DNA of 51,977 nucleotides, taken from NCBI GenBank assembly GCA_022750125.1, contig JAKIWH010000002.1, forward strand, positions 1 to 51,977. Reading direction: 5' to 3'. Positions within the stretch are counted from its first letter, which is position 1. Each line of letters begins with the position of its first letter. Below, one piece after another: positions 38,433-51,977 of the stretch. The translations under genes were made by a program, and so were the position numbers. The notes below the pieces were generated by a model that searched no databases, was not told where the DNA came from, and was given only the letters and a program-made list of their open reading frames with translations. Origin of the DNA: Thermoplasmata archaeon (GTDB lineage: Archaea; Thermoplasmatota; Thermoplasmata; Lutacidiplasmatales; UBA184).

Positions 38433-38945
38433 TCAGACGGCGTTCGGGGGGGCTGCGGGGCCGTCCCCGAGGCGACGGCCGTCGGCCGTCATGCGCAGGT
38501 AGAGCAGGATCGGCTGCGCCAGCCAAGCCACCGTCCAGCCGCGCTCGGTCAGCGAGTATCGGACCCGCGGAGGGCGCGTATCGAGAATCTGTCGGCGCAC
38601 CATCGAGTTCTGCTCGAGCTCCTTCAGTTTGAGGGAGAGCACCCGCGGGCTGATGTTCGGGAGGCCCCGCCGGAGCTCCTCGAACCCGATCGAGGGCACC
38701 GCATGGAGCGCGAGCAAGACATCCGCCGACCACTTTCCGAAGATCGACCGGATGATCTTGAGGTCGCCCTGAGCGGTCGTCAGCGGGTCGGAGGGAGGCC
38801 CGCGCAGGTCGGTGACCCGCTCGGCCAGACGCACCGCGGACTCGCGGAAGTCGGAGAACCAGTGTTCGATGTCCGCCTCCGGCGTTGGGAGTTCGGCGGA
38901 CAAAGTCTTCGTTGGCCGACTCGCGACCGTCGCCGTGCTCGGCAT
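38433..38945 (-). CDS. HxlR-family winged-helix transcriptional regulator
   Basis: GKWSADVLLAL....GF.EL.R.L..ISPRVLS.KLKELE...MV.R......PPRV.YSLTERG is the HxlR signature. The ATG at 38945 was chosen over the TTG at 38975 because the TATA-like box overlaps the latter. Confidence 0.85.
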   Translation of the reverse strand: MPSTATVASRPTKTLSAELPTPEADIEHWFSDFRESAVRLAERVTDLRGPPSDPLTTAQGDLKIIRSIFGKWSADVLLALHAVPSIGFEELRRGLPNISPRVLSLKLKELEQNSMVRRQILDTRPPRVRYSLTERGWTVAWLAQPILLYLRMTADGRRLGDGPAAPPNAV

Positions 38946-38973
38946 GATCTTCGACCGGTCATCCGAGATGCGC

Positions 38974-38981
38974 AATATAAA
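38974..38981 (-). promoter_or_regulatory. TATA-like box of the HxlR-family gene
   Basis: Minus-strand TTTATATT lies 29-36 nt upstream of the ATG at 38945. Confidence 0.45.
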
Positions 38982-39126: not shown

Positions 39127-40608
39127 ATGGGCGACGAACGGAACGGGCTTCCCCGGCGAAGGCTGTTGGTCCTCGGCCTCGACGGAGTTCCGCCGGAGTT
39201 CCTGTTCGAACGGTACCGGGACGTCACCCCCAATCTCACGAAGCTCCTCGACCACGCGCTTCGGGCCCCGCTTCGAACGACCGACCCGCCGATCTCGGTT
39301 CCCGCGTGGCCCGTCATGTTCACGGGGGTCGACCCCGGAACGCTCGGGGTCTACGGCTTCCGCCATCGGAAGGGCGGGTCGTACACCGAGATGTACCTCC
39401 CGACCTCGCGGGGACTCCCCGTCCCCACCATCTGGGAGACGCTCTCGGTGCGAGGCTACCGGGTCGCCGTGGTCGGGATGCCGCTCGGGTACCCTCCCCC
39501 CCCGGTGAACGGGGCGTACATCTCCGACTTCCTCACCCCCAGCGACAGCCCGACGTTCACTCACCCCGCCGAGCTGCGTGCCGAGATCGAGGACCGATTC
39601 GGCCCGTACCCGTTCGATGTCGTGTTCCGGTCGCAGGGCCGTGACCAGCTGTTTCCGCAGCTTCTTGCCATGACGCGCAAGCGGTTCGAGATCGCCCGCT
39701 GGCTCTACGAGCGGGAGCCCTGGGACGTCTTCGCGGTCCACGAGATCGGCACCGACCGGCTCAACCACGCGTACTGGAAGTACTTCAACCGCGACCATCC
39801 GAGACACGAGCCCGGCAACCGGTTCGAGCATGTGGACCTCGAGTACTACGCCGCGCTGGACCAGTGCATCGGCAGCCTCCTCGAGCTCACCGACGAGCGA
39901 ACGATCGTCGTCATCGCTTCCGACCACGGGTCGATGTCGATGAACGGCTGTTTCTGCATCAACCAGTGGCTCGAGGCGAAGGGCTACCTTGTCCTGAAGC
40001 GGCCTCCGCCCGCGCCGGGAACCCCGCTCGAGAAGGCCGAGGTGGACTGGAAGGCGACGACGGCCTGGGGCGAGGGTGGCTACTACGCCCGGATCTTCTT
40101 CAACGTCCGCGGCCGCGAGCCCTCGGGTGCCGTTCCGGCCGGGCAGGTGGTCGCGCTGCGGCGCCAGATCGCCCGGGACCTGGCGACGATCACCGATCCC
40201 GAGGGCCGTCCGATCGGGGTCCGGATCCTCGACCCCAGAGAGATCTACGCCACGGTGCGCGGGGACGCCCCGGACCTCATCGTCTACCTGGGCGAGTTGC
40301 GGTGGCGCTCGGGGGGAACGATCGGCCATCCGGGCCTCTTCCTCCAGGAGAACGACATCGGGCCCGACGACGCGGTGCACGGGGTCGATGGGGTCTTCCT
40401 CCTCTACGACCCGAAGGACCCCGTCGCGCGGACCCACGCGACGATCCAGATCCGCGACGTCACACCGACCCTGCTGAGCCTCCTCGGGGAGCCGATCCCG
40501 AGGCACGTCCAGGGCTCCCCCGTGCTCGACGTGGTCGAGCACGTACCGGGGGCACGTCCGCCGACCTCGGAGCAGCTCGCGGCGGCGCCGCTCCCCGCTC
40601 AGCCGTAG
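39127..40608 (+). CDS. Alkaline-phosphatase-superfamily protein (type I phosphodiesterase / nucleotide pyrophosphatase-like)
   Basis: LLVLGLDGVP is the metal-binding Asp strand. PISVPAWPVMFTGVDPG..GV is the nucleophile Ser/Thr-x-P...TG pattern of the NPP family, and SDHG is the distal metal site. Confidence 0.85.
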   Translation: MGDERNGLPRRRLLVLGLDGVPPEFLFERYRDVTPNLTKLLDHALRAPLRTTDPPISVPAWPVMFTGVDPGTLGVYGFRHRKGGSYTEMYLPTSRGLPVPTIWETLSVRGYRVAVVGMPLGYPPPPVNGAYISDFLTPSDSPTFTHPAELRAEIEDRFGPYPFDVVFRSQGRDQLFPQLLAMTRKRFEIARWLYEREPWDVFAVHEIGTDRLNHAYWKYFNRDHPRHEPGNRFEHVDLEYYAALDQCIGSLLELTDERTIVVIASDHGSMSMNGCFCINQWLEAKGYLVLKRPPPAPGTPLEKAEVDWKATTAWGEGGYYARIFFNVRGREPSGAVPAGQVVALRRQIARDLATITDPEGRPIGVRILDPREIYATVRGDAPDLIVYLGELRWRSGGTIGHPGLFLQENDIGPDDAVHGVDGVFLLYDPKDPVARTHATIQIRDVTPTLLSLLGEPIPRHVQGSPVLDVVEHVPGARPPTSEQLAAAPLPAQP

Positions 40609-42089
40609 CCCCACGAGCGGAGCCGCACGTCAAGGCCGGTCATCGGCTTCTCGCCCTGCGACAGCTCGGAGCGCTGTCGGTCCGCTTCCTCCGCGAGGTA
40701 CCCTCCGAAGATCGGGGTGGCGCGGTCGGTCGCCTCCGCTCGCTCGAACACCTCGGGCGGGCGGTGGTCGGGGTCGGCCTCGGCGTCCCACTCGTAGAGC
40801 GTGCGCGTGGCGAGGTCCAGCACCCACTTCGACCGCTCGCGGTAGGCCGCGAGCAGCCGGTGGTTCCACAGTTGGTCCATCCGGATCCCCTGCAGCGACC
40901 GATTCGGGTCGGAGGCGGGGGCGCCCTCGCAGAAGACCGCACCGTCCTCGGGCGCGGCCGCCCGGTGGGGGAAGGGGGCGTGCCCTTCCTCGTCGAACGG
41001 CGCGAGCCCCATCGCGGTGCTCCGCAGCCACGATACGACCTCGGCGAGGCTCGTCCAGCGTTCGACGCGCCGCGGAACCGAGTGCTCCTCGGGAGGCACC
41101 ACGAGGAGAGGCACCCGGGCGATCGAATCGGTCGCCCCGCAGCCGTGGTAGACGTTCCCCCCCTCCCCGAACGACTGGCCGTGGTCCGCGGTGACGACGA
41201 ACAGCGTGCGGGACCATCGCCCGTGGCGGCGCAGGCTCCCGACGAGCTCACCGATCTTCAGGTCCGCGAGCTCGAGGGTGCGGAAGTAGCCGGCGAGCAG
41301 CGAGTCCCACGGAACGAACCGCTGGAGCCCGTCGACCGCGAGCAGGTAGTACCTCGGCGTGCGCGCGTACCAGCGGGCGAGGGGACCGACCGGGTGCCCG
41401 TTCGGCACCTCGGGGTACGGTTCGTGGGCGTCGACGAGGTTCACGAAGGCGAAGAACGGGCGGTCCGCCGGTTGCTGGCCGACCCACCGGTCGAACTCGC
41501 CGACCACCTCGGGTCCGCACACCTCGCGCTTGAACGCGACCTCCTGGGGGTGGTTGAACGCGTTCATCGGCACGATGCACGGCGGAAGCCGCTCGATGAG
41601 CCGGCGGATCTCCGAGGAGTAGAGGAAATCCGCGTGGCCGGCCCACCGGTTGGCCGCCGTCCGATCCTCGTCGGAGATCCCGATGTGGCGGGCGTACCGG
41701 TGGTCGAACCCGTCCTCGAGGCCGTACCCGCCGACCAGATGGACCATCTCGGTGAACATCGCGGTCGAGTAGCCGCGGCGGCGCAGCCAGGCGGCGACGG
41801 TCTCCCGGGGCGCGGCCCCCCGCTCGAAGGTCCGAACGCCGTGGACGTTCGGATAGACCCCGCTGAAGAGCGAGGCATGGGAGGGGATCGTCCAGTTCGC
41901 CGTGGCGACCGCCCTCGGGAAGACGGTCCCCCGGCGCGCCAGCTCCGCGAGCACCGGCGTGACCGGCCCCTCGGTGCCGCCGAGGGCGGGCAGGCTCTTC
42001 GCCCGGGCGCAGTCGAGCACGACGACGACGATGTTGGTCCCGCTCGGCGGTGGCAGGCCGCCGGCAGCTCCGGGGGGGCTCTCGCTCAT
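40599..42089 (-). CDS. Sulfatase-fold (alkaline-phosphatase superfamily) enzyme lacking the Cys/Ser-x-Pro-x-Arg formylglycine motif
   Basis: NIVVVVLDCAR, TIPSHASLFSGVYP (in place of C/S-x-P-S-R-x-S-L-x-T-G) and TADHGQSFGE..N.YHG are present. The ATG at 42087-42089 overlaps the stop of the upstream gene (ATGA). The remainder of track ORF ..43232 is out of frame with that gene. Confidence 0.85.
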   Translation of the reverse strand: MSESPPGAAGGLPPPSGTNIVVVVLDCARAKSLPALGGTEGPVTPVLAELARRGTVFPRAVATANWTIPSHASLFSGVYPNVHGVRTFERGAAPRETVAAWLRRRGYSTAMFTEMVHLVGGYGLEDGFDHRYARHIGISDEDRTAANRWAGHADFLYSSEIRRLIERLPPCIVPMNAFNHPQEVAFKREVCGPEVVGEFDRWVGQQPADRPFFAFVNLVDAHEPYPEVPNGHPVGPLARWYARTPRYYLLAVDGLQRFVPWDSLLAGYFRTLELADLKIGELVGSLRRHGRWSRTLFVVTADHGQSFGEGGNVYHGCGATDSIARVPLLVVPPEEHSVPRRVERWTSLAEVVSWLRSTAMGLAPFDEEGHAPFPHRAAAPEDGAVFCEGAPASDPNRSLQGIRMDQLWNHRLLAAYRERSKWVLDLATRTLYEWDAEADPDHRPPEVFERAEATDRATPIFGGYLAEEADRQRSELSQGEKPMTGLDVRLRSWGYG

Positions 42090-44623
42090 CCTTCGAGGAT
42101 CACCCACTCGGCGTTCGAGTAGACGGGGTGGAAGCCGAACGCCGCCTCGTAGTACCCGACCTGGGCGGCGTCGTACGAGTCGGCGGGCCAGAGCAGGAAG
42201 TGGATGCTGTGCTCGGCGAGGAACTGCTGGGTCTGGAAGACGGGGCGCACCTGATCGGTCGGGAGCTGGGTCCCCGTCGGGAGGACGGAGAGGTTGAGGG
42301 TGAACGATCGCCCCGTGACGGGGAAGACGGCCTTCCACTCCGACCCGCCGTCGAACCGGGCGCTCGAGGTGTTGGACGGGAGAGGGTTGAGGCCGACGGT
42401 CGCACCGACCTGGGCCGGGTTGGGATTTTGGCCGACCGTCCCCTGGACCTCCCAGGTGAGCACCCCGGCGGCGTAGGCCTGTTCGGTGATACGGTCCCGG
42501 GCGAGCTGGGGAGACCCACCGGGGGGCGACGCGAGCCCGAGACCGAAGGAACGGACGGTCTGGCCCGCGGCGGCGACGACCTGGAACTCGATGATCGCGC
42601 TCCCGTTGCCGGTCGGCTGGGCGACCTCGGTGACGGTGGCGGCGGGGGTGACGTACACGATCGTCGCGGCCCCGCCGGCCGCCTGGGGGCTCGTGAAGGT
42701 CGGAGCCGCTCTCCCGGTGAGCAGCGGGTAGGTCGTGAGCGTGGTCCCGGACCCGGCGGTGACGTACAACGCGCCGGGGAGCACACGAAAGATCGGGAAC
42801 GGCACCCCGAGGTCGTAGACCGTGTACAGGGGAGCCTGGCTCAGCAGGGAGGTCTGGAAGCCCGAGAAGGAGAGCACCCCCGGCCCGTCCGCGAGGACGG
42901 TCTGCGCGTTCAGGGCCCAGTACGATTCCTGGGCCACGCCGATCTGGAACGGGTCGAAGAGGAGCCAGACGGGTCCGGCAGTGTACGAGGCCCGATTGGT
43001 GAGCGCTTCGCACCACCGGGCCGCGGTCGTCACCGTCAGCACGTTGCCACCGGCAGGCTGCGTCCGCAGCCAGGAGGTCGCGGCGACGAAGGCGGCGTCG
43101 TGCGCCGAGTGGGAGCCCGACGACTCCCCGAGCTGGACCGCGGGGATCGTCACGGTCGAGAACAGCAGGAACAGGAGAGCACCGACCATCGCCGGCGCGA
43201 CCCAGCCGGCCGACCGTCCGGAGGTCGTCCACCGCGGAGATCGCGTTCGGTAGGGTCCATCGGGCGCGGCCGGGAGGTCGGGAGCAGCGGCCCGCTCACG
43301 CGCGGCCCAGCGCGTGAGCCGGTCGGCGGCCACCACCGCGAGCAGGAGCGACGGCAACGGGAGGAAGTAGAGGAACCGTTCGTAATCGGTGGCCACATGC
43401 GCAAGCCAGCCCAGGGCCGGGACGCTCGCGACCGAGGCGAGCCAGCCCGCGGCGACGGTGAGGGGGAGCGACAGCGCGTGGGGCCGGAGCGCGCGGACCA
43501 CGAGCAACCCGACGAGCAGGAGCACGGGGATCGCGAGGAGGATCGCGGTGGCGATATTCGGGTCGAGGACCAGCGTGCTCCCGGCCGGGGAGAACGCCGG
43601 GTAGTGGCCCAACGGGACGAAGATCTCCCCGATCTCGTCGACGGCATACGCCGACGGATTCGAGTAGAAGTAGCTCGGATGCGAGATCCCGAGCCGGGCC
43701 GTCACCGCGCCGTAGATCCCGACGAGGGCGGCGACGCCGAAGCCCCCCAGCAGGTTGCGACGGTCCAGGAAGAAACGGAAGGAGACCCCGCGTGTCAGCG
43801 CCAGGAACAGGCTCGAGCCGGCAAGGCTCGCGATGAGGAGGAAGAACGTCAGGTCGTGGGCGAGGTAGGTCAGCCCGACCAGCGAGTAGAACCCGACGGC
43901 GTCCCTCGTCCGTCCCTCTCGAACGAAGAGGAGGAAGAAGACCATCGCCTCGTTGAAGAGGACGAGCGCGAAGAGGTTCGGGTACGCCCCCCAGAAGAGC
44001 ATCTGCAAGGTGGTACCGCAGCCGAGACCTGCCCCCACGAGCGCGACCTGCAGGAACCCCGTGTGGAGGTAGCGCCGGGCGAGATGGATGAGCGAAAGCC
44101 CGTAGGCGGCGATGAGACCGACGGCGAGGATCGATGCGGCGAGGGGAGGGCTCGAGGTCACGAGAACGAGAAAGCCCAGCACCGGGAAGAGGAGAGGAGA
44201 GTACACGCCCGGCTGGTTCGCTGGGTCCGGGGCGGTCGGCAGCCCTCCGTACGGGTAGGAGACGGAGAGCCAATGGCCCGGGTCGACCCCCGGCGGCAAC
44301 GGCGCTTGGGAGAACTCGACGGCGACCGCGATGGAGACCCCGAGCGTGAGGAGGAGCATCGGAAGGAGGTACCATCGATTCACCGTCGATCGCGATCGCC
44401 AATGGGCGGCGAGCTCCCGTGTCACGTGGCCGGCCTGCGTACGGAGCGACCGGGCGCGCGGCGCGTCGAACGGCGTCCCGTGCCGGGTCGGGAACCCGAG
44501 CGCGTCGCTCGCCGGTGCTGACGCTCCCGCTCCGCCCGGCTCCCCGTACGATTGCCACGTCTCGTTCGTCGCCGTCCCCCCTACTCCGCTGGTCCTTCCC
44601 ACCCGAGGATCGAGGTGGACCAC
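42086..44623 (-). CDS. Polytopic membrane protein with a large C-terminal extracytoplasmic domain (GT-C-like architecture), paralog A
   Basis: An 845-aa protein with about 12 hydrophobic segments in the first ~470 aa, then a further TM segment and a ~350-aa beta-rich domain. It shares clear blocks with 45219-47141 (GVDPGHW/GGDPGNW, FWGAYPNL/YWGAYPNL, TDYERF/TDYHRF). Confidence 0.75.
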   Translation of the reverse strand: MVHLDPRVGRTSGVGGTATNETWQSYGEPGGAGASAPASDALGFPTRHGTPFDAPRARSLRTQAGHVTRELAAHWRSRSTVNRWYLLPMLLLTLGVSIAVAVEFSQAPLPPGVDPGHWLSVSYPYGGLPTAPDPANQPGVYSPLLFPVLGFLVLVTSSPPLAASILAVGLIAAYGLSLIHLARRYLHTGFLQVALVGAGLGCGTTLQMLFWGAYPNLFALVLFNEAMVFFLLFVREGRTRDAVGFYSLVGLTYLAHDLTFFLLIASLAGSSLFLALTRGVSFRFFLDRRNLLGGFGVAALVGIYGAVTARLGISHPSYFYSNPSAYAVDEIGEIFVPLGHYPAFSPAGSTLVLDPNIATAILLAIPVLLLVGLLVVRALRPHALSLPLTVAAGWLASVASVPALGWLAHVATDYERFLYFLPLPSLLLAVVAADRLTRWAARERAAAPDLPAAPDGPYRTRSPRWTTSGRSAGWVAPAMVGALLFLLFSTVTIPAVQLGESSGSHSAHDAAFVAATSWLRTQPAGGNVLTVTTAARWCEALTNRASYTAGPVWLLFDPFQIGVAQESYWALNAQTVLADGPGVLSFSGFQTSLLSQAPLYTVYDLGVPFPIFRVLPGALYVTAGSGTTLTTYPLLTGRAAPTFTSPQAAGGAATIVYVTPAATVTEVAQPTGNGSAIIEFQVVAAAGQTVRSFGLGLASPPGGSPQLARDRITEQAYAAGVLTWEVQGTVGQNPNPAQVGATVGLNPLPSNTSSARFDGGSEWKAVFPVTGRSFTLNLSVLPTGTQLPTDQVRPVFQTQQFLAEHSIHFLLWPADSYDAAQVGYYEAAFGFHPVYSNAEWVILEG

Positions 44624-44694
44624 GGGGTGAGCGGTCCAAAAGGCGCATCGTAGGGGCTCGGTTAGGGGCTATGCTCACGGAGAGCCGTCAACGA

Positions 44695-45135
44695 TCACAC
44701 GGAGGGGGAGGGGACGAGGAGGACGGTCCACTCCGGGTTCTGATAGAGGATGGGAAGCCCGTACTCTCGGACGAGGTACGCCGACTCCCCCGGCAGCGCG
44801 ACGATCGGGTTGGGCGCGAACGACGCGTTGCGCATCAGGACGAACCGGACCCCGAGCTGACTCCAGATCCCGGGGGCGCTCAGTACGGGAGGAACCGTCA
44901 CGACGTAGCTCGCGGCCTGGGGTGTCGTGAGGGTGAGGCTTCCGTCGAGGGAAGTGCTCACCGAGGGGTCGGCGGGGCGGTAGACGAGTTGGACGGCCGG
45001 CCCGCCGGCGCTCGGGTCGTACTCCGTCGCGCTGACGAGCGCATCCGCCGGAGCGACCGTCCCGGAGGTCACGGGGCGGACCGACCCCCCGATGAGCTGC
45101 CAGCTGAACTCGCCCGGTGTTCCGGTTCCCGTCAC
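44695..45135 (-). CDS. C-terminal fragment of paralog B (this frame carries coding-like sequence up to about 45222)
   Basis: Its end (..YGLPILYQNPEWTVLLVP) parallels the C-terminus of paralog A (..FGFHPVYSNAEWVILEG). Upstream in the same frame, VAFTVTTTGPHTLRSLALTIVPE continues without a start codon. Confidence 0.6.
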   Translation of the reverse strand: MTGTGTPGEFSWQLIGGSVRPVTSGTVAPADALVSATEYDPSAGGPAVQLVYRPADPSVSTSLDGSLTLTTPQAASYVVTVPPVLSAPGIWSQLGVRFVLMRNASFAPNPIVALPGESAYLVREYGLPILYQNPEWTVLLVPSPSV

Positions 45136-45218
45136 GGTCGCCCGAGTCGCGGTCTCGGGAACGATCGTCAGGGCGAGCGACCGGAGGGTGTGCGGGCCCG
45201 TCGTCGTGACCGTGAACG

Positions 45219-47141
45219 CTACGCGGTCGGAGCGACCGGGTCGACCGAGATCGATACCACGAGCGTGAACCCCGTCTCGGTGTACACGACCGTCATCGGT
45301 TGGCCGGCGCTCGCTGGGAGGGAGACGACGGGGGTCCCGTTCAACCGTCCGTCGGTGAGGCGGCCGGTCCCGGGGTCGGAGAGCTGCACGACGACGCTCT
45401 GGGGGACGACACGCAGGACCGGGTGGACCGGACCCGAGAGCGACACCGAGTAGTCCGGCAAGCCGTCGGCGTCGGTCGGGTTCACCGCGTGCACCGCGGC
45501 CGTGACCTTCCCGTTCGTCAGCGCGTAATGGCTAACGAGGGCGTAGTACGCGAGCTGCGCGTCGGTCGCCTGCGACGGATAGAACAGGTAGAGCGGCGAG
45601 CTCGGGGCGTAAGCGTTCTGGGCGGTGAGCGCGCGGGTCCACTTCTCCGCTCCGGCGACGGTGAGCGTCGCTCCCCGGACCCCGCTGTGACGGATCGCGT
45701 TGACCGCGTCGAGAAACGCGGCGTCGTGCCCCACCTTCGTGAACGCCGCGTCGGACCGGGACATCGCGGGAGCGGTCGCCGAGAGCGTGAGCAGCAGGAC
45801 GACGGCCACCCCGACGATCGCCATCGCTCCGGTGCGCGGAATCGACCTGGCGGCCTTCCACCCCCGCGCGGCTCGGTTCGGGGCGGGCTGGGAAGGGGTC
45901 GTGGGCGGCTCCGACGTGGTGGCCGTCAGCGTGGGGCCCTTACGGAGCACCCAGGCGGTCTCCCAGAAGTACGCGGCCGTCAGGACGACGGGGGTCAGCA
46001 GGAGGAACCCGAACCGATGGTAATCCGTGACGATCTGCAGGAAGATCCCGACGATCGCAAGCACCATCGGCGCGAGCAGCCAGGCCAGCAGCAGCAGGGC
46101 GCTCGGCGTCAGCCAGCGGGGCCGCCGATCCCGTAGGAGGGCGAAGACGGTGAGCCCGGTCCCCACCCCCACCGCAAGGAGGTCGAGGGCGAGCGCCCGT
46201 CCGATGTAGACGTGCGGCACGAGCGCCTGGAAGATCGTGCCGAACGGGAGGAGGGTGAACTCGCCCGAGCTCGACTGAAAGTAGTCCGGATGAGTGATCC
46301 CGAGGGCGAAGGTCCCCCCGTAGTAGCCGCCGACGGTGACGAGGACGAGCAGGAGGCCGACGAGCCCCCCGTGCGACTGGACAAGGGCCCGGGCCGCGAT
46401 GGACGGGGACTCGAGCTCCCCGCGCTCGGCCTCACGGACCGCCTGCGCACGCGGCGGGGTCGGGATGAGACCTCCGAGCCCGAGGAACAGGACCGTCCCA
46501 GTGGAGAGGGCGATCCCCACGAGCGAGTGGGTCAGGACCGTCGCCGCGAAGCAGGCCCAGAATTGGAAGGCGCCGGAGGAGGGGTGCCCACGACCCGCCC
46601 GTAGGAGGCCGATCCAAGCGAGGTTCATGAAGACGTACGCGAGGAGGTTCGGGTACGCTCCCCAGTAGAACATGTCCAACAGCGACGGATCGATGAGCAG
46701 GACGCTCACGGCGAGCAGGGCCATGGTGTCCGTTCGCAGCAAGTACCGAGCTAGCGCGTAGGTCGAAATCCCCAACATGAACAGGAGGACGGGGGCGAAG
46801 AGCTGGGCCCCCTCGACCGGACCGAGCGCTCCGACGAACAGCCCGAGGATCGGGAACAGAAGGGGGGGATAGCCGAAGGGGGTGAGCTGGGAGGGATACG
46901 GCTGGCCAAGGTAGATGTAACCGGTGGCGACCCAGTTGCCTGGGTCCCCGCCCGGCACCACCGGGGTGTTGTGGAACACCAGTCCCAGCCAGGCGGCCAT
47001 CCCCCCCGAGAACCCGAGCGCGACGATCCAGTAGGTCCAGGCCGCCCCACCGGTCTTGCCCAGCCGTGCGTGGACGTTCTGGGCCCCGTGCTCCATCGGC
47101 CGAATTGCCCGGCCCAACGAATCGGACGACTGGTATGCCAT
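45219..47141 (-). CDS. Polytopic membrane protein, paralog B, N-terminal 640 aa (truncated by a frameshift)
   Basis: It is collinear with paralog A over the TM region and the start of the extracytoplasmic domain. It ends at the TAG at 45219-45221, where the other frame takes over. Confidence 0.75.
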   Translation of the reverse strand: MAYQSSDSLGRAIRPMEHGAQNVHARLGKTGGAAWTYWIVALGFSGGMAAWLGLVFHNTPVVPGGDPGNWVATGYIYLGQPYPSQLTPFGYPPLLFPILGLFVGALGPVEGAQLFAPVLLFMLGISTYALARYLLRTDTMALLAVSVLLIDPSLLDMFYWGAYPNLLAYVFMNLAWIGLLRAGRGHPSSGAFQFWACFAATVLTHSLVGIALSTGTVLFLGLGGLIPTPPRAQAVREAERGELESPSIAARALVQSHGGLVGLLLVLVTVGGYYGGTFALGITHPDYFQSSSGEFTLLPFGTIFQALVPHVYIGRALALDLLAVGVGTGLTVFALLRDRRPRWLTPSALLLLAWLLAPMVLAIVGIFLQIVTDYHRFGFLLLTPVVLTAAYFWETAWVLRKGPTLTATTSEPPTTPSQPAPNRAARGWKAARSIPRTGAMAIVGVAVVLLLTLSATAPAMSRSDAAFTKVGHDAAFLDAVNAIRHSGVRGATLTVAGAEKWTRALTAQNAYAPSSPLYLFYPSQATDAQLAYYALVSHYALTNGKVTAAVHAVNPTDADGLPDYSVSLSGPVHPVLRVVPQSVVVQLSDPGTGRLTDGRLNGTPVVSLPASAGQPMTVVYTETGFTLVVSISVDPVAPTA

Positions 47142-47333
47142 CGGCCCGACTCCGTGCCCGGACGAATTCGACGAGGCAAGGCGTTGAATACCATCGCTAA
47201 AGGTTAGGATAGGTCGTCACTTACCGGACACGCTTCGGGGGACGGCGCAGGGCCGGGGGCGACCCCTAACCCAGATGTTCTGTCCGAACCCGCGGGCTCA
47301 TAGCAGTCCGACCCCCGTCGGGTGGACCAAGAG

Positions 47334-48482
47334 ATGGCGCGAAGGCTTGGTCGGGGATGGAGTGACGGCGCTGGAAGAACATCGATCGTCCTGAGCTTCA
47401 CGCTCGTAGCGCTCTTGGCCCTCTTCGTGCCGGTACTCCATCCGGCTCCCGCGTCCCGGCCCTCGGGCATCGAAGCCCTCCGGGAGCTACCGCACGGTTC
47501 GGGTGGAGCGCCCCCCCTCGTCAACAACGGGGACTTCTACGTGAACGACTCGACTCCGCCGGGGTCGTTCCCGGTCGGGAGCCGTTTGACCGCGAGCTAC
47601 CAGCTCGTGGTGCCTGGATTCCCGAACGGCCCCGCCGGGCAGATTCACGTGCCGAGCGCCGTCGCAGTCTTCCCGGGCGCGTCGGGTCCGATCCACGTCT
47701 ACATCCCGTCGGCTAACCTCACCGTCTCCCCGGGCGGGCAGGTCACTCCGTCCGAGAACAGCTCGACTCGACTCACGTCGACCACCCAGTTCAGCCCGAC
47801 CACCCCGGCCTCCCTCGCGTCGCAAGGCTTCGCCGTGCAGGCGTCGTGGCCTGTGGGGACGCACTCGGTCGGGATCCAATGGAGCTGGTCGATCGCGACG
47901 CCGGACGGCGTCGTGACGAACGGGCCCGCCTCGAACCGAGTGTCGATCGCTCCGGCAGAGACAGCGACGGTGGCGAACAACCCCCCGGCCTCCGTTCCGC
48001 TCGGGGGGAGCTACCCGATCTGCCTCAGCGGCCCGGTCACCGGCCGTACCTTCTCCGCCCACTTTTCGACGGACTCCCCGTTCACCACGTACTCGGCTCC
48101 ACCCGTGACCGTAACGAACCTGTCGGGGGGTGAGTTCTGCTGGAGCACGACGGTTCCAGCCTCCCTCCCCTCGGGTGCAGCGAACGTTCATCTGTGGGAG
48201 TATGCCGCGGGGACCTACCTACTCTACGAGTTCCCCGTCCAACTCGACGGGTCGTCGACCTCCTCGACCGCCGGCGGGGGGGGCCTCCGACTGTCGTCGG
48301 TCGGAGTAGCGGCCGTGGGAGCGGTGGCGGTCGCATCGGCCGTGGCGGGGGTTGGCGTCCTCTCCCGGCGCCACGCTCGGGTGTCCAATGTCCCGTCAGC
48401 CGTACCGCCGTCCGTAGCGGCAACACCGCGAAACTCCAGTCCCCCGTCTCCTCCCGAGAGCCGCTGGACCTGGCGACCCTAG
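47334..48482 (+). CDS. Secreted, C-terminally membrane-anchored glycoprotein-like protein, hypothetical
   Basis: An N-terminal TM/signal segment (TSIVLSFTLVALLALFVPVL) precedes a Ser/Thr/Pro-rich beta-type ectodomain with sequons. A C-terminal TM segment (VGVAAVGAVAVASAVAGVGVL) plus RRH ends it. An alternative GTG start lies at 47322. Confidence 0.7.
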   Translation: MARRLGRGWSDGAGRTSIVLSFTLVALLALFVPVLHPAPASRPSGIEALRELPHGSGGAPPLVNNGDFYVNDSTPPGSFPVGSRLTASYQLVVPGFPNGPAGQIHVPSAVAVFPGASGPIHVYIPSANLTVSPGGQVTPSENSSTRLTSTTQFSPTTPASLASQGFAVQASWPVGTHSVGIQWSWSIATPDGVVTNGPASNRVSIAPAETATVANNPPASVPLGGSYPICLSGPVTGRTFSAHFSTDSPFTTYSAPPVTVTNLSGGEFCWSTTVPASLPSGAANVHLWEYAAGTYLLYEFPVQLDGSSTSSTAGGGGLRLSSVGVAAVGAVAVASAVAGVGVLSRRHARVSNVPSAVPPSVAATPRNSSPPSPPESRWTWRP

Positions 48483-49150
48483 GGGGAACTACGCCATCGG
48501 GATCGCATTCGGAGTCGGGTCTGGTCGCTCAGGAAGCCCGGAGGGGTCATCGATTCGCATGGGGCCGCGCAACCCACCTCGCCTCGCCGTAAGCTAGGGT
48601 CGCGTGACGGTTCGGGCCCGGCAAACGTCGCGGGTTGGGACGGAGACGTCGTGGAATCCTGCGATCCGGCCCCGAGCGCCCGCCCGGAGCTCGCGGTAGG
48701 GAGCGATGGGGTCACGATGGCGACGGAACCGTTGCGAACGAATCGCCGCGCGGGCTCCGCCGCACGGTCTGTGTTGAGCTCCTGCGACGATCGGTCGAAC
48801 TCGAGGTGGGCGTGGGTCCGGGCCTCAACTCGTCGCCCTCGAGGAGCCTTGCCACGCAGCCCGAGGCCGGTCGCGCCCGAGCCGGGAAGCCGGTTGGACC
48901 CTCCTCACGGCGTGGAAGCAAGTGCCCCCCGGAGGGAGGCTCGGCGGGCGTCGAGGGGTACGGTCGCGAGCGATACCTCCCGCGACACTTTGCAGACCGC
49001 TCGATGCTCGACCCAGGGTGCAACGGTCGGTGGCCGAGGTCGGTACGATCTAAGTGTGCCGGGTCGGTGCCCCGGGATCGATAGGGGCTCGGAGCGGAAC
49101 GTCGATGGGACTCTTGCGATAGATGGCGGAGTACTGGGTCTGCTACGGCC

Positions 49151-49168
49151 AGTAACTGAGTTGTTACT
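49151..49168. repeat. Perfect 6-bp inverted repeat AGTAAC-N6-GTTACT inside an AT-rich island
   Basis: Read directly from the sequence: 49151-49156 AGTAAC, loop TGAGTT, 49163-49168 GTTACT. Its function is unknown. Confidence 0.6.
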
Positions 49169-49247
49169 TACACCAATTCATGTAATGGCTATCATCAAGG
49201 TCGCAATCGATATCGGAATCGAAGGGAATTATCCGAGTAATACGGTT

Positions 49248-49255
49248 CATATTTA
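49248..49255 (+). promoter_or_regulatory. TATA-like box of the GT2 gene
   Basis: CATATTTA lies 26-33 nt upstream of the ATG at 49281, which is consistent with a leaderless transcript. Confidence 0.45.
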
Positions 49256-49280
49256 GCCACGGGACCAGATTCCTCTCTCG

Positions 49281-50783
49281 ATGCGCTGGACGGAGACAGG
49301 TTCGCGAGCCGACCTGGAACATGCCGAGCTTCCCCTCGCGCGGGCTGAATGGCCGAAGGCGACGCGGGCAGGCATCGGATCGGAGGTCGACCTCGAGGAA
49401 CCCACCCCCCTGCACCGCCCGGCGCATCTTCCCAACGCGGCAGCTTCCGGTTCGAGGCTGCTGATCCTCCCGACGCTGAACGAGGAGGAGGGTCTCGGGC
49501 TCACCCTCGCGGAGTTTGCCTCGACCCGGTTCGTACCCGAGGCATCGCGACCGGTGATCCTCGTCGTCGACGGACACTCGACCGACGGCACCGGGGAGGT
49601 GGCGCGGAGCCACGGCGTGCGCCTCCTGCTCCAGGATGGTCGGGGCAAGGGCTCGGCGGTCCGGGAAGGCCTTTCGTGGGCGCTCCGGAACGGCTTCCAG
49701 ACGGTGGCCGTCATGGATGCCGACGCCACGTATCCGGCCGGGGCGCTCCCCGCGCTCTTTGACCTGTTGGAGGCGCACCAGGACGTCGTTATCGGGGTCC
49801 GAAAGGCCCCCCCGCTCGAGCGAGCGAGCCTCCGGGACCTTGTCCACCGTGTGGGCAACGGGCTCCTGAACTACGCCGCCGCGCAGCTGAGCGGCAAGTC
49901 CCTGCTCGATGTGTGCAGCGGGTTCTGGGGGGTTCGGGTCTCGACCCTCGACCGACTTGCGCTGTGCTCGGACGGATTCGAGATCGAGTCGGAGCTCTTC
50001 ATCAAGTCGTTTCGGCGGGGACTCAGGGTCGCTCAGATACCGGTTCAGTACGGTTCCCGCGCTGGGACCGCCAAGCTGCGCGCGTTCCGGGACGGCTCCC
50101 GGATCCTGCTCTCGATCTTCCGGCAGTCGGTGCGCCAACCCCGTCGACCGACGCCGCAGTCCGCCCGGGATTTCACGGCCGACCCGCTCGCCCTCGTCCT
50201 CGGTCTCGGTCCGGAACGCGTGCTGCTGTTGAGCGCGCCGGAGCGGGTCTCGGACGCCGACCGCATCGCCGACAGGATCGCGACCGCCTCCCCTTCGGCC
50301 GAGGTGACCACGGCGCTCCTGCCGGAGGGGGCCCGCGACTCGTTCGACGGACACCTCCTCTCGGCGCTGGTCGCCCCGTCGGTAGGGGAGGCGGCGCCCA
50401 CGGTCGTGACGTTCCTGCCGTCCTCCGGTAACGGCTACGACCTTCCGGTCTTCGTCGGGATCCCCCGCACGCAGCGGCTGCTCTGCCTCGCCCCGAGGTC
50501 GGATCGACGCGTGCACGGCGAGCCGGCCGAACTCGCCGCGCGCATGGGGTTCCGCAACGAGCGGACCCCCTCGGGGCGGCTCGGCGCGTGGTTCGTCCTC
50601 GCAGCGATTCTCGAGCGGTCGGGGACCCATCGGGAGCTCGCGCTCCTGAAGGCGAACGCCGGCGACGCCCCTATGCAGAGCTTCCGCAAGCCGTCCCCGC
50701 TGACGCTCCCCGGCGCGGGACGTTGGTCCCGCGTGACCGTCCCGTACACGTGGCTCACCGAGGCCGCCCACCGCCTGAGGTGA
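49281..50783 (+). CDS. Family 2 glycosyltransferase (dolichyl/polyprenyl-phosphate hexose synthase-like) with a ~200-aa C-terminal extension
   Basis: The GT-A/GT2 core is LLILPTLNEEEGL, VVDGHSTDGT, GKG.A...G, VMDADATYP (DxD) and GFEIESEL. Residues from about 300 to 500 have no recognisable motif and no TM segment. Confidence 0.85.
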   Translation: MRWTETGSRADLEHAELPLARAEWPKATRAGIGSEVDLEEPTPLHRPAHLPNAAASGSRLLILPTLNEEEGLGLTLAEFASTRFVPEASRPVILVVDGHSTDGTGEVARSHGVRLLLQDGRGKGSAVREGLSWALRNGFQTVAVMDADATYPAGALPALFDLLEAHQDVVIGVRKAPPLERASLRDLVHRVGNGLLNYAAAQLSGKSLLDVCSGFWGVRVSTLDRLALCSDGFEIESELFIKSFRRGLRVAQIPVQYGSRAGTAKLRAFRDGSRILLSIFRQSVRQPRRPTPQSARDFTADPLALVLGLGPERVLLLSAPERVSDADRIADRIATASPSAEVTTALLPEGARDSFDGHLLSALVAPSVGEAAPTVVTFLPSSGNGYDLPVFVGIPRTQRLLCLAPRSDRRVHGEPAELAARMGFRNERTPSGRLGAWFVLAAILERSGTHRELALLKANAGDAPMQSFRKPSPLTLPGAGRWSRVTVPYTWLTEAAHRLR

Positions 50784-50875
50784 GCGTCGTTGGGTCCACC
50801 GATCTCCCGAACCCCGTCGTGGGTCCGCCGCCCGACGTAGGGGGGCGTCCGTGACACCGGGAGGGGGAGCCGATC

Positions 50876-51977
50876 TTGGCCCGGGAGGAGGGGGCCGAGA
50901 CACCCCGGGCCTCGGGGCCGAGGGAGCCCGTCGGGTCGGAGTCCGGAGGGAGCGACCTGAGCTCCTTCGAGTCGCTCGGCCGGGGGACGGGGGTGCTCCT
51001 CCTCGGCACGACCTTGCTGTTCGTCTTTGGCTTCCTCTCCCGGGTCCTCATCGCACGAGAGTTCCCCGTCGCCGATTGGGGCGTCTTCTCGCTCGCGCTG
51101 GCGTTGAGCGGGCTCCTCTCGGTCGTTGGGTTGCTCGGTCTCGACCAGGCCCTCGCCCGCGCCCTTGCCTTCGAGGTGCGACCCGAGGTGCGCTGGGCGA
51201 TCGTCCGGTATGCGGTCTCGGTCTCGACGGGGGTCGCGGTCGCGATCTCCGCGACGCTCCTCCTCCTGAGCGGACCGACCGCCGGGCTCTTCCACCTACG
51301 GGCGGAGACCTGGGTCTTTCAGCTGTTCGCGATCGCGACCGGGTTCAATCTCCTCAGCCTGGTCCTCGCCGCCATCTTCCAGGGATTCGAGGACGCGCGA
51401 CCGAACGCGATCTACAACCAGATCGTGAACCCGGCGCTCTTCGTGGTGTTTGTGGCCATCGCGGCGGGGCTGCGTCTCGGCTTCGTCGCCGTGGTGGCGG
51501 GTTATCTCGCCGCGTCGGCGCTGAGCTTCCTTCTCCTCGCGGCCCACTCGGTGCGCCGTCGACAGACCCACCGGCCCGCGGGACCGGTGCCGCCGGCGCC
51601 CCGCGGCGAGCTCTGGCGTCTCTCGGCCTCCCTCTGGGGCGTCGGGACCCTTGCCTACGCGACCGCGTTCGCCGATACGGTGATCCTGGGGGTGTTCCGC
51701 CCGGCGGCCGACGTGGGCGCCTACGCGGCGCTGATGGTCCTCGGTCGCGTGCTCCTGGTCGCGAACGGTACGCTGACGTACATCTACCTCCCGATCGCCT
51801 CGCGGCTCACCCGACAGCGCGCGTTCTCTACGATCCGCTCCACCTACCTCGTCGGGACCCGGTGGGTGCTCCTCGTCGTGACCCCCGGCTTCCTGCTGTT
51901 GCTGCTGCTGCCGCGGCTCTCGTTGACCGCCGTCTTCGGCGCGAACTACGCCGCCGGTGCCGTGCCGCTGCAGATCC
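50876..51977 (+). CDS. Polysaccharide/oligosaccharide flippase (Wzx-like, MOP superfamily), 3' end beyond the window
   Basis: It is not in the ORF track because it has no stop inside the window. The frame is open from the TGA at 50852-50854 to the window end, and TTG at 50876 is the first start. The translation (..LGRGTGVLLLGTTLLFVFGFLSRVLIAREFPVADWGVFSLALAL... and ...VILGVFRPAADVGAYAA...) has at least 9 hydrophobic segments and the typical Wzx N-terminal pattern. Confidence 0.8.
   Translation, partial: MAREEGAETPRASGPREPVGSESGGSDLSSFESLGRGTGVLLLGTTLLFVFGFLSRVLIAREFPVADWGVFSLALALSGLLSVVGLLGLDQALARALAFEVRPEVRWAIVRYAVSVSTGVAVAISATLLLLSGPTAGLFHLRAETWVFQLFAIATGFNLLSLVLAAIFQGFEDARPNAIYNQIVNPALFVVFVAIAAGLRLGFVAVVAGYLAASALSFLLLAAHSVRRRQTHRPAGPVPPAPRGELWRLSASLWGVGTLAYATAFADTVILGVFRPAADVGAYAALMVLGRVLLVANGTLTYIYLPIASRLTRQRAFSTIRSTYLVGTRWVLLVVTPGFLLLLLLPRLSLTAVFGANYAAGAVPLQI

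Follow-up and report, generated by a model that had tools for sequence, protein, structure and literature searches.

The region described here is probably (we put this at about 0.6) a conserved Thermoplasmata locus for completing a cell-surface glycan at the external side of the membrane. This reading draws on the fold and motifs of the proteins and on gene context, all from uncultured MAGs. The genes most likely serve to couple a sugar to a lipid carrier, flip the product across the membrane, and attach the sugar at the cell surface. The preliminary description had proposed this combination of a GT2 lipid-sugar synthase, a flippase, and GT-C enzymes, and it is supported by both a fold test and a gene-association test. 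Its three-step logic has precedent in Haloferax volcanii, where AglD, AglR, and AglS resemble the GT2, flippase, and GT-C set (PMC3871713).

The region spans positions 39127-51977 of the window, that is, the whole stretch of 51,977 nt analyzed from a Thermoplasmata contig of an uncultured soil archaeon, and flanking genes from position 32603 were also considered. All six kinds of components previously described within about 13 kb were located, either at the same positions or a few bases away. The features are as follows.

32603-36328, strand not given: secreted PF04185 phosphoesterase-PKD protein
36846..38102, minus strand: ATP sulfurylase (sulfate adenylyltransferase, SAT); PF01747 and PUA_2; NF003166 at 388 bits, above cut-off
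38433..38975, minus strand: HxlR-type transcription regulator; PF01638, E 8e-17
39127..40608, plus strand: NPP-type (nucleotide pyrophosphatase/phosphodiesterase-like) two-metal enzyme, 493 aa; PF01663, E 5.6e-39
40599..42089, minus strand: metalloenzyme with the S1-sulfatase/phosphonate-monoester-hydrolase (PMH) fold, 496 aa; PF00884, E 1.3e-30
42086..44623, minus strand: GT-C paralog A, predicted 845-aa polytopic glycosyltransferase, intact; AF2 model and Foldseek
44695..45225, minus strand: C-terminal remainder of GT-C paralog B, about 170 aa, out of frame with the N-terminal part; three-frame translation and ortholog alignment
45219..47141, minus strand: N-terminal portion of GT-C paralog B, 640 aa, covering the TM core and the beginning of the outer domain; BLASTP against A
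47322..48482, plus strand: membrane-anchored Ser/Pro/Thr-rich surface protein, 386 aa; TM-like segments at both ends
49281..50783, plus strand: GT2 of the polyprenyl/dolichyl-phosphate hexose synthase type, 500 aa; PF00535, E 3e-18
50876..51977, plus strand: MOP-superfamily (Wzx/AglR-like) flippase, partial, continuing past the window end; PF01943 (Polysacc_synt), E 2.8e-20

The large membrane proteins

The large proteins appear to form an undescribed GT-C family and are predicted glycosyltransferases. The AlphaFold (AF2) model of paralog A (pLDDT 86.6, pTM 0.84) places an outward C-terminal beta-sandwich at residues ~527-845 behind a membrane core in residues 83-503. This core holds about 11 TM helices according to the model and the positive-inside rule, rather than the 12-13 originally counted. 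As anticipated for this 845-aa protein, its best PDB fold matches in Foldseek were GT-C enzymes, namely STT3 (8age, 2.4e-6), PglB (5ogl, 6e-6), ArnT (5f15, TM-score 0.52 on target), DPY19 (7zlh), and EmbB (6x0o), with E values of 2e-6 to 7e-4 and moderate TM-scores against the solved enzymes (0.33-0.36 on query, 0.41-0.52 on target). A transporter fold was also considered, and none occurred among the Foldseek matches. Paralog A itself had no sequence match in Pfam, NCBIfam, or PDB. Distant members of its family, recovered by profile search, scored above the Pfam gathering scores for PMT_2, PTPS_related, and DUF6541, and the family is therefore tied to the GT-C clan by transitive linkage. PTPS_related belongs to Pfam clan CL0111 (PMC7801869).

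Three motifs are invariant in the family (paralog A numbering): PGxD114xxxW, W211-G-x-Y-P-N216, and T412-D-Y-x-R-F417. All three map to predicted outward-facing loops: D114, itself invariant, to the first, and WGxYPN and TDYxRF to later ones. The WWD motif occurred in 0 of 36 members, in agreement with the earlier statement that a WWDYG/STT3 signature is missing. The C-terminal domain matched N-terminal beta-sandwiches of GH94/GH65 phosphorylases, GH92, and GH63 in Foldseek, and it resembles sandwich domains with which glycoside phosphorylases and hydrolases bind carbohydrate. With 405 of 1.84 billion representatives, the family is small. It is found only in Thermoplasmata, where its members are annotated as hypothetical, and has multiple paralogs per genome among related genomes.

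Two tandem proteins of about 850 aa had been reported. Paralog A is indeed intact at 845 aa, but paralog B consists of a 640-aa open reading frame, ending in a TAG at 45219-45221, and a frameshifted C-terminal part. Paralog B is 30% identical to A (BLASTP, E 1e-40 over 659 columns). In an intact 815-aa ortholog from locus L004, residues 19-622 align to 47036-45228 and residues 625-795 to 45225-44713 in the other frame, with the junction at ~45225-45228. The frameshift either marks paralog B as a pseudogene or stems from an indel in the assembly.

Partner proteins encoded in the window

The sulfatase-fold gene was said to be translationally coupled to the GT-C gene, and the stop of paralog A and the start of the sulfatase-fold gene do overlap by 4 nt (ATGA). 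Literature searches returned no precedent for coupling between GT-C and sulfatase-fold genes. The formylglycine motif was correctly reported as absent; an invariant T-x-P-S-H stands there instead, with Thr67 at the formylglycine position and T-I-P-S-H aligned to S-S-P-S-R of 3ed4. Other invariant residues are D26, H71, H222, K278, D302, and H303. The AF2 model (pLDDT 85.6) was closest in fold to PMH 4uph, carbohydrate sulfatases, and choline sulfatases, and neither LtaS nor EptA was among its top 50 structural matches. Its C-terminal tail is disordered and carries an invariant W-G-Y, which suggests docking to a partner.

The NPP-type gene is convergent with the sulfatase-fold gene, as first described, and their 3' ends overlap by 10 nt. 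Its product conserves D19, S/T57, D210, H214, D266, H267, and H418 across 17 homologs, and the best PDB matches of its profile were Xanthomonas NPP (2gsn) and phosphonoacetate hydrolase. No signal peptide was detected in any NPP-type homolog examined. Since neither alkaline-phosphatase-superfamily enzyme of the window has a TM segment or signal peptide, it is reasonable to infer from sequence that both are cytoplasmic. Our literature searches found no established role for soluble cytoplasmic enzymes of this superfamily in a lipid-linked sugar pathway.

Assignment of the GT2 to the dolichyl-phosphate-hexose synthase type held up. Beyond PF00535, its best NCBIfam matches were AglJ (2.4e-43) and Dol-P hexose transferase (1.3e-27), both below the equivalog cut-off, and its only PDB sequence match was the Dol-P-Man synthase of P. 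furiosus (5mlz, 1.7e-9), with the MDAD motif aligned. Unlike archaeal DPMS and GtrB, which have TM helices, the GT2 showed no TM-like segment, including in its C-terminal extension of ~215 aa. Directly after it, as noted before, comes the MOP/Wzx-like flippase, with at least 8 TM-like segments in addition to its PF01943 match.

The surface protein, for which an ATG at 47334 is an alternative start, has TM-like segments at residues 21-39 (N-terminal, signal or TM) and 329-347 (C-terminal anchor), and no Pfam match. It had been called sequon rich. This holds for its family (144 observed versus 38.6 expected, 3.7-fold, with control families at ~1.8-fold) but not significantly for the window copy (5 versus 2.7 expected, P = 0.1). 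The protein is a candidate glycoprotein, serving as acceptor or accessory.

Gene context in related loci

Gene context was compared across 51 related loci from Thermoplasmata MAGs, picked via the GT-C gene; sequence records place the source organisms in acidic soil and peat. The gene association is conserved in many of these MAGs, including in rearranged gene orders. Sulfatase-fold genes adjoin a GT-C gene in 26 of 33 cases, and an alkaline-phosphatase-superfamily gene borders 28 of the 41 GT-C clusters, although sulfatase-fold adjacency counts are biased because loci were selected through the GT-C gene. In each of the 26 pairs both genes share one strand, and the pairing holds when gene order flips. 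Furthermore, the two families have co-diversified (r = 0.60 over 29 pairs, a value reached by 0 of 2000 permutations). In three samples free of GT-C selection, the sulfatase-fold gene lies amid genes for GT2, GT4, a flippase, and a large polytopic protein, with a DUF2079 protein as partner instead of the window's GT-C family. The most distant GT-C family member (L003) has no alkaline-phosphatase-superfamily gene adjacent.

The GT2, flippase, and surface-protein genes also recur beside GT-C/sulfatase-fold pairs, and the order Wzx-(PGM)-GT2-surface protein-GT-C-GT-C-sulfatase fold-NPP is found in L004, L010, L012, L030, and others. Locus L037 reads GT2-GT4-GT-C-sulfatase fold-NPP-APS kinase-Wzx on one strand, and GT4 and further GT2 genes are present in some related clusters. 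Flippase orthologs adjoin the GT2 gene in L010, L012, and L040 and follow NPP or APS kinase in L037 and L046, and surface-protein homologs adjoin GT-C genes in at least 17 loci. The HxlR-type regulator gene keeps its position in the closest relatives (L001, L004, L010-L012, L030, L033); its place in the functional unit is uncertain. Ten related loci carry SAT, arranged in either of two gene orders, and another 8 carry APS kinase. Because sulfate-activation genes recur beside such clusters, the window's ATP sulfurylase is possibly linked to the cluster. In one clade, the same clusters carry a UDP-sulfoquinovose synthase gene (585 bits versus a cut-off of 575).

Proposed pathway and alternative explanations

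In the pathway that we propose, the DPMS/AglJ-like GT2 would charge dolichyl phosphate with one, possibly modified, hexose in the cytoplasm, and the neighboring MOP-family flippase would move the lipid-linked sugar outward. The two GT-C paralogs, one frameshifted in this assembly, would then pass the sugar on to a glycan acceptor. This is probably either a lipoglycan or an N-glycan carried by surface glycoproteins, for instance the anchored protein encoded in the same cluster. Each GT-C gene is presumably co-transcribed with a sulfatase-fold gene, to which it appears translationally coupled in the window. The least supported element is the role of the sulfatase-fold and NPP enzymes, which may perform phosphoryl- or sulfuryl-ester chemistry on a cytoplasmic donor or acceptor precursor, for example by removing an ester group from, or transferring one on, the lipid-linked sugar before flipping. 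In related genomes, such a pathway would be tied to sulfate activation and sulfoquinovose synthesis.

The large proteins could alternatively be AglB-independent, oligosaccharyltransferase (OST)-like enzymes that transfer a lipid-linked glycan en bloc to Asn, Ser, or Thr of proteins, acting on the sequon-rich protein encoded alongside them. In favor of this, the best structural matches are STT3 and PglB, both catalytic OST subunits, the neighboring surface-protein family is strongly sequon-enriched, the GT4 and additional GT2 genes of some related clusters could build an oligosaccharide, and Haloferax provides a parallel in an N-glycan transferred without AglB by an unidentified OST (PMC3892788). 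Yet no family member has a WWDYG-type motif, Pfam gave no STT3 match, distant relatives fall to PMT_2, PTPS_related, and DUF6541, the C-terminal domain is all-beta and matches carbohydrate-enzyme sandwiches, and the window's cluster has only a single-sugar-type GT2 without an initiating phosphoglycosyltransferase, so that we find this explanation distinctly unlikely. Very unlikely, in our view, is a cluster that builds a phosphate-containing surface polymer or anchor-like lipoglycan, with the Thr/Ser-nucleophile enzymes as phospho-alcohol transferases. Its toolkit (GT2, flippase, GT-C, and alkaline-phosphatase-superfamily enzymes with Thr/Ser nucleophiles and D/H metal sites) would match, in the manner of Firmicutes LtaS plus CsbB/GtcA/YfhO or of GPI assembly with DPM1, the GT-C enzymes PIG-M/V/B, and the phosphoethanolamine transferases PIG-N/O/G. 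Multiple GT-C paralogs per genome would also fit a multi-linkage polymer, of which the mannose-rich lipoglycan of Thermoplasma is an example. However, known transferases such as LtaS, EptA, and PIG-N carry a membrane domain at the N terminus and work on the extracytoplasmic side, unlike the two enzymes here with neither TM segment nor signal peptide, and the sulfatase-fold model is nearest to PMH and S1 sulfatases, with LtaS and EptA outside its top 50.

It is also conceivable, if rather unlikely, that the sulfatase-fold and NPP enzymes stand outside the glycan pathway, in a phosphate- or sulfur-economy regulon that merely shares a neighborhood with envelope genes and serves organophosphate or phosphonate-ester scavenging or lipid remodeling to phosphorus-free sulfo- and glycolipids. 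Consistent with this are the secreted PF04185 phosphoesterase-PKD protein in the window, a type of gene that recurs near related clusters, the PstS- and PstC-like genes near L002, and the nearby ATP sulfurylase, APS kinase, and UDP-sulfoquinovose synthase, as well as structures closest to promiscuous phosphonate monoester hydrolases and an origin in acidic soil and peat. A shared neighborhood fits poorly with the 4-nt start/stop overlap, the same-strand arrangement of 26 of 26 adjacent pairs that survives gene-order flips, the co-diversification of the two families, and the single-strand L037 locus, where the sulfatase-fold, NPP, and APS kinase genes lie between GT-C and flippase. Likewise, the samples free of GT-C selection keep the sulfatase-fold gene amid glycosyltransferase, flippase, and large polytopic protein genes. 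The reading that we favor remains the completion of a surface glycan outside the membrane, by a cluster that would use a previously unnamed membrane glycosyltransferase family.

Gene content of the cluster and its recurrence in Thermoplasmata

The six components that a preliminary description had recognized in this DNA were all recovered where it placed them, with corrections to the second large protein, the number of transmembrane (TM) segments, and the sequons. These genes and two neighbors are as follows.

36846-38102, reverse strand: ATP sulfurylase (NF003166, above cut-off)
38433-38975, reverse strand: HxlR-type regulator
39127-40608, forward strand: nucleotide pyrophosphatase/phosphodiesterase (NPP)-type gene (PF01663, 5.6e-39)
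40599-42089, reverse strand: sulfatase-fold gene (PF00884, 1.3e-30)
42086-44623, reverse strand: GT-C A, intact large membrane protein
44695-47141, reverse strand: GT-C B, frameshifted paralog of GT-C A
47322-48482, forward strand: anchored surface protein
49281-50783, forward strand: GT2 glycosyltransferase (PF00535)
50876 to the window end, forward strand: flippase gene, partial (Polysacc_synt, MOP/Wzx type, 2.8e-20)

The gene for GT-C A (845 aa) and the sulfatase-fold gene share the sequence ATGA, in which the stop codon of the former overlaps the start codon of the latter. GT-C B, previously taken for a single intact ORF of about 850 aa, consists instead of a 640-aa ORF (45219-47141) and a C-terminal part that runs in another frame to 44695. 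Residues 19-622 and 625-795 of an intact 815-aa ortholog align to these two frames, with the junction at 45225-45228, and the break reflects either a pseudogene or an assembly indel.

The window has a G+C content of about 70%, and outside the cluster it carries housekeeping genes (MetRS, ThyX, ValRS, thermosome, aIF2-beta, signal-peptide peptidase, deoxyhypusine synthase, and Pus10). Neither AglB nor any other agl gene was found within the window, which comes from a contig of 53.6 kb, and scans of the window with Rfam and for promoters and terminators added nothing to the picture of the cluster. Several other features were recorded along the way. ARAGORN called an 88-nt tRNA-Gly(TCC) at 14311-14398 (forward strand), which is either a false call or an archaeal tRNA with an intron; Rfam at its gathering threshold gave only a tRNA-Lys at 32395-32468. 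Two ORFs on the forward strand are uncharacterized, namely an 842-aa membrane protein with PF09847 (12TM_1) at 22864-25392 and a 305-aa ORF at 35917-36834 that has coding-like third-position G+C and no Pfam or NCBIfam match. On the reverse strand, a 1241-aa ORF (32603-36328) combines a PF04185 phosphoesterase of the phospholipase C/acid phosphatase type with two PKD domains and is therefore probably a secreted enzyme. PF04185 genes also recur near related clusters (L001, L004, L006, L015, L021, and L056, our labels for loci in other Thermoplasmata MAGs).

Related loci were obtained through exact protein look-ups (6) and a scan of species-representative genomes (49), in which GT-C, sulfatase-fold, and NPP genes were located by tblastn and with HMMs built from our own alignments. 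Homologs of the cluster proteins all came from Thermoplasmata MAGs, many of them from acidic soil or peat and some named Lutacidiplasmatales. The gene association proposed for the window is preserved in many of these genomes. In L004, L010, L012, and L030, the order matches that of the window nearly gene for gene: Wzx-(PGM/PMM)-GT2-surface protein-GT-C-GT-C-sulfatase fold-NPP (convergent)-HxlR-ATP sulfurylase. Other loci carry repeated pairs of sulfatase-fold and GT-C genes in flipped order (L006, L013, L022, L047), a GT2-SAT-NPP-GT-C-sulfatase fold-NPP arrangement in which SAT denotes ATP sulfurylase (L017, L019, L028), or GT2-NPP-GT-C clusters that have no sulfatase-fold gene (L042-L055).

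Adjacency was counted over nonredundant loci with at least 2.5 kb of flanking sequence, all of which had been chosen through their GT-C gene. Of 33 sulfatase-fold genes, 26 had a GT-C gene within 700 bp, in every case with the same orientation, and an alkaline-phosphatase-superfamily gene touched 28 of 41 GT-C clusters. NPP genes adjoined a GT-C or sulfatase-fold gene in 23 of 30 cases, mostly on the opposite strand. Furthermore, the pairwise identity matrices of the GT-C and sulfatase-fold proteins were correlated over 29 adjacent pairs (r = 0.60, with 0 of 2000 permutations above 0.37), a correlation for which shared phylogeny accounts in part.

Because the main loci had been picked through the GT-C gene, we sampled three sulfatase-fold homologs independently of it. 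Each was found beside a 765-806-aa membrane protein with DUF2079 (PF09852), not beside a member of the new GT-C family to which the two large window proteins belong, and was surrounded by GT2, GT4, flippase (Polysacc_synt), and nucleotide-sugar genes.

L056:7638-10058: DUF2079-associated region
L057:3298-5619: DUF2079-associated region
L059:8049-10409: DUF2079-associated region

This adjacency in GT-C-independent samples indicates that the partners of the sulfatase-fold enzyme, all large polytopic envelope proteins, come from more than one family. When profiles of the new family and of the DUF2079 neighbors were compared, the probability was just 1.4%, so the two kinds of membrane partner cannot be called homologous by sequence. 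We take DUF2079 to belong to the GT-C clan; it was unmentioned in the literature we searched.

Fold of the large membrane proteins and probable donor supply

Searches of the large proteins against Pfam, NCBIfam, and PDB sequences and profiles returned nothing usable, even with a 36-sequence profile. The link to GT-C enzymes comes only from structure and from distant family members. An AlphaFold (AF2) model of GT-C A, built from the 36-sequence alignment (pLDDT 86.6, pTM 0.84), has a helical membrane core (residues 83-503) followed by an all-beta domain (527-845). When the core was compared with the PDB by Foldseek, the best matches were all GT-C enzymes (E = 2e-6 to 7e-4), including STT3 (8age, 2.4e-6), PglB (5ogl, 3rce), human STT3A/B, ArnT (5f15), DPY19, and EmbB; TM-scores against ArnT were 0.49-0.52 on the target, with 0.52 for 5f15. 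The C-terminal domain matched beta-sandwich domains of cellobiose and kojibiose phosphorylases and of GH92 and GH63 enzymes. The large proteins had been described as polytopic with 12-13 TM segments; the first part stands, and the model points to approximately 11 helices.

When 1.84 billion representatives were searched exhaustively with the family profile, 405 proteins were recovered at E <= 1e-3 and 110 at E <= 1e-30. The most distant matches to the family profile (E = 1e-20 to 1e-32) exceeded gathering scores for PMT_2 (31.9 bits), PTPS_related (28.9 bits), and DUF6541 (40.4 bits). PTPS_related, a member of the GT-C clan (PMC7801869), was also weakly matched by 11 of the 36 close members (best 3.2e-4), and the window proteins themselves had no Pfam match. 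The profiles for YfhO, PMT, and ArnT (PF09586, PF02366, PF13231) were unmatched by the window proteins at E <= 0.01; when all 36 members were searched against Pfam at E <= 1, these profiles were again unmatched, with PTPS_related as the sole exception.

The family has invariant motifs of its own: PGxD114PGxW just after TM1 (83-104), W211-G-x-Y-P-N216, and T412-D-Y-x-R-F417, with D114 present in 36 of 36 sequences. When the model helices were read with the positive-inside rule, the Arg-rich loops all fell on one side, which would place the three motifs and the C-terminal domain on the outer side. We considered AglB/STT3 identity and rejected it: a WWDYG-type motif occurs in 0 of 36 members, as had been claimed for the window proteins, there is no STT3 Pfam match, and the C-terminal domain is an all-beta sandwich. 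With solved GT-C(A) enzymes (STT3/PglB/AglB, ArnT, PMT, DPY19, EmbB), the family shares the membrane-core fold, an invariant Asp in a first loop predicted to face outward, and a soluble C-terminal domain predicted to lie on the same side. It differs from them in sequence (10-14% identity), in the absence of their WWDYG, DK, or MI motifs, in its approximately 11 predicted TM helices, and in a C-terminal domain that resembles glycoside phosphorylases and hydrolases rather than the periplasmic domain of STT3 or PglB. Judged by the modeled fold, the large proteins represent an undescribed family of GT-C enzymes. It is new as a family, within a well-known superfamily and a known pathway logic.

That logic is represented in the window, where a GT2, a MOP flippase, and a polytopic, putative outer-face transferase are encoded together, in agreement with the three-component scheme proposed earlier; the arrangement is kept in L004, L010, L012, L037, and L040. 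The best NCBIfam models for the GT2, which has no TM segment, were AglJ (2.4e-43) and a haloarchaeal Dol-P hexose transferase (1.3e-27), both under their equivalog cut-offs. Among PDB sequences it matched only 5mlz, the Dol-P-mannose synthase of Pyrococcus (1.7e-9), in an alignment that includes the MDAD motif. Given the neighboring DPMS-like GT2 and MOP flippase, the putative donor of the GT-C proteins is a polyprenyl-phosphate-linked sugar.

The closest functional parallel is AglD/AglR/AglS of Haloferax volcanii, which adds the final mannose to an N-linked pentasaccharide: a GT2 charges dolichyl phosphate with hexose in the cytoplasm, a MOP-type protein is required for translocation, and on the outside a polytopic enzyme passes the sugar to a glycan that the protein already carries (PMC3871713). 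In the window, a GT2 of the same type is directly followed by a flippase gene, and GT-C-fold proteins are encoded as well. Unlike their Haloferax counterparts, the GT-C proteins here belong to a family that has no Pfam or NCBIfam model and is found only in Thermoplasmata, and the window has an alkaline-phosphatase-superfamily partner that the Haloferax pathway lacks. Similarly, the bacterial CsbB/GtcA/YfhO and GtrB/GtrA/GtrC systems decorate a surface polymer by means of a GT2 that makes the lipid-linked sugar, a flippase, and a polytopic transferase that acts outside the cytoplasm. In contrast to those systems, neither the window proteins nor the 36 members match YfhO or Gtr Pfam families, the flippase is of the MOP/Wzx type rather than the small GtrA/GtcA type, and conserved cytoplasmic sulfatase-fold and NPP partners are added.

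Homologs of the surface protein are about 350-400 aa long, with an N-terminal signal or TM segment and a C-terminal TM anchor, and adjoin GT-C genes in at least 17 loci. The window copy is anchored, as described, and is not itself significantly sequon rich (5 sequons versus 2.7 expected, P = 0.1). Across the family, 144 sequons were counted where shuffling predicted 38.6; enrichment was about 1.8-fold in three control families, of which two are cytoplasmic. The surface protein is probably an N-glycoprotein, and for the role of acceptor it is only a candidate. The 0.8-kb spacer between its gene and the GT2 gene (48483-49280) contains no assignable gene; a 201-aa ORF within it (48651-49256) has no Pfam match and poor codon-position G+C, and L004 has a spacer of about 0.3 kb at this place.

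Sulfatase-fold and NPP enzymes and the genomic link to sulfur metabolism

The sulfatase-fold protein (496 aa) was described as cytoplasmic and devoid of a formylglycine motif; the motif is indeed absent, and a cytoplasmic location is likely. TM segments and signal peptides are lacking from both this protein and the NPP, in the window copies and in homologs alike. The sulfatase-fold protein has at least 567 homologs at E < 1e-10. Its nearest relatives in sequence and fold are phosphonate monoester hydrolases (PMH), carbohydrate sulfatases, and choline sulfatase (Foldseek E of about 5e-20 and TM-scores of about 0.56-0.60 against PMH and S1 sulfatases). With these enzymes (e.g., 4uph, 2vqr, and choline sulfatase 6g5z) it shares the whole-protein fold and the metal and leaving-group positions (D26, H222, K278, and D302/H303), all of which are invariant in the family. 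It differs in that C/S-x-P-x-R is replaced by an invariant T-x-P-S-H (T67-[IVLM]-P-S-H71 in 28 of 28 sequences), so formylglycine cannot form. T67 aligns to the Cys/Ser position of 3ed4, and C/A/T/G27 stands where the DD pair would have its second Asp. By established knowledge of the superfamily, the Thr nucleophile and D/H metal pair point to transfer or hydrolysis of a phosphoryl type or an unusual sulfuryl type.

Also unlike S1 sulfatases and PMH, the protein is paired in the genome with GT-C proteins and ends in a conserved tail (residues 482-496, window 40599-40650) that is disordered in the model (pLDDT < 50). Its final W-G-Y is invariant in 28 homologs and looks like a short docking motif. 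An LtaS/EptA/PIG-N-type transferase was also considered. Those enzymes share the Thr nucleophile and D/H metal pair, but they have an N-terminal membrane domain and act outside the cytoplasm, and the model here contains no TM helix; on topology and fold neighbors we rejected this identity, with no LtaS, EptA, or MCR structure among the top 50 fold matches. The NPP (493 aa) has a complete two-metal site (D19, S/T57, D210, H214, D266, H267, and H418 in 17 of 17 sequences), in which S/T57 aligns to the nucleophile Thr of Xanthomonas NPP 2gsn.

The clusters are also associated with sulfur genes. In the window, ATP sulfurylase is encoded by the second gene from NPP; it recurs in 10 related loci, in two gene orders, and APS kinase is found in 8 others. 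The closest relatives share the synteny of the ATP sulfurylase and HxlR pair that immediately precedes the cluster, and the sulfurylase linkage persists in the second, rearranged order (L017, L019, L028). L037 reads GT2-GT4-GT-C-sulfatase fold-NPP-APS kinase-Wzx, co-directional and with short gaps, and its APS kinase gene occupies L037:15557-16093, between NPP and flippase. The L042-L055 clade has, after its APS kinase, a GalU-like uridylyltransferase and a UDP-sulfoquinovose synthase (NF041015, 585 bits versus an equivalog cut-off of 575), all inside the GT2-NPP-GT-C clusters (L050:18048-20897, also L042, L045, L048, L052, and L055). The same clade has a conserved 392-aa protein between NPP and APS kinase and, after the GT-C gene, a 900-aa internally repetitive protein (L050:12451-15153) with paralogous repeats at L050:4964-5887.

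Thermoplasma and Sulfolobus N-glycans contain 6-sulfo sugars. The sulfoquinovose pathways of this type, which use the UDP-sulfoquinovose synthase Agl3, have a counterpart synthase in one clade of the related loci; the window, in contrast, has ATP sulfurylase only, with neither sulfoquinovose synthase nor APS kinase. From the recurring ATP sulfurylase, APS kinase, and UDP-sulfoquinovose synthase, we conclude that sulfo-sugar metabolism is repeatedly embedded in these clusters and tied to the GT-C step by context only. Haloferax Agl7, which is needed for sulfation of Dol-P-hexose, was considered as a possible sulfatase-fold precedent, an idea we dropped because the papers give no fold for it. 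In the literature searched, nothing relevant was found on sulfotransferase or sulfatase links to archaeal N-glycans or on glycosylation in the Lutacidiplasmatales genome paper.

Proposed mechanism, alternatives, and implications

The preliminary interpretation holds up with respect to both the fold of the large proteins and the conserved gene association. From fold and gene context, we infer the following chemistry. The GT2 would make dolichyl-phosphate hexose, the MOP protein would flip it, and the GT-C paralogs would add the hexose to a surface glycan outside the cell, following AglD/AglR/AglS logic. The cytoplasmic sulfatase-fold and NPP enzymes would most plausibly act on an ester group of a lipid-linked or nucleotide-activated precursor.

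Other explanations can be offered for parts of this scheme. The sulfatase-fold and NPP genes may be merely co-located, as members of a phosphate- or sulfur-economy regulon, and the nearby PF04185 phosphoesterase and Pst genes would fit that idea. Yet the start/stop overlap, strict co-directionality, and co-diversification of GT-C and sulfatase-fold genes speak against it, and we regard it as unlikely. That the large proteins form a non-AglB oligosaccharyltransferase seems to us quite improbable, and an LTA- or GPI-like assembly of a phosphate-containing polymer is very doubtful as a function for the cluster.

A bolder extension of the glycan-modification mechanism is a machine of two proteins, the sulfatase-fold enzyme with its invariant Thr and the GT-C enzyme paired with it, in which a cytoplasmic member of the sulfatase/PMH clade would be a transferase, not a hydrolase, with the same partnership for DUF2079 proteins. 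For example, the dolichol-linked sugar used by the GT-C enzyme could receive a phosphoryl group, or a sulfuryl group donated by APS or PAPS. This is a long shot. If true, surface glycans of archaea would be sulfated or phosphorylated by a new enzymatic route, and the alkaline-phosphatase superfamily would gain a new functional class.

Thermoplasmata live in acid habitats with a single membrane coated with glycoproteins and lipoglycans, and to our knowledge the enzymes that build this coat on the outer face are almost unknown. The GT-C family defined by this locus has no name as yet; its candidate catalytic motifs are clear, and with its donor-supply context of GT2 and flippase it offers testable candidates for these outer-face steps. 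The surprise is the tight coupling of cytoplasmic, formylglycine-less sulfatase-fold enzymes and NPP-type enzymes to this family and to DUF2079 partners; the conserved pairing with the sulfatase-fold enzymes is the unexplained element and potentially the novelty. If the link is one of co-regulation only, hundreds of proteins labeled hypothetical would nonetheless gain a useful family annotation. If both enzymes tailor the lipid-linked donor, this would be a new role for the alkaline-phosphatase superfamily, and it could bear on how archaeal glycans acquire sulfate or other ester groups.
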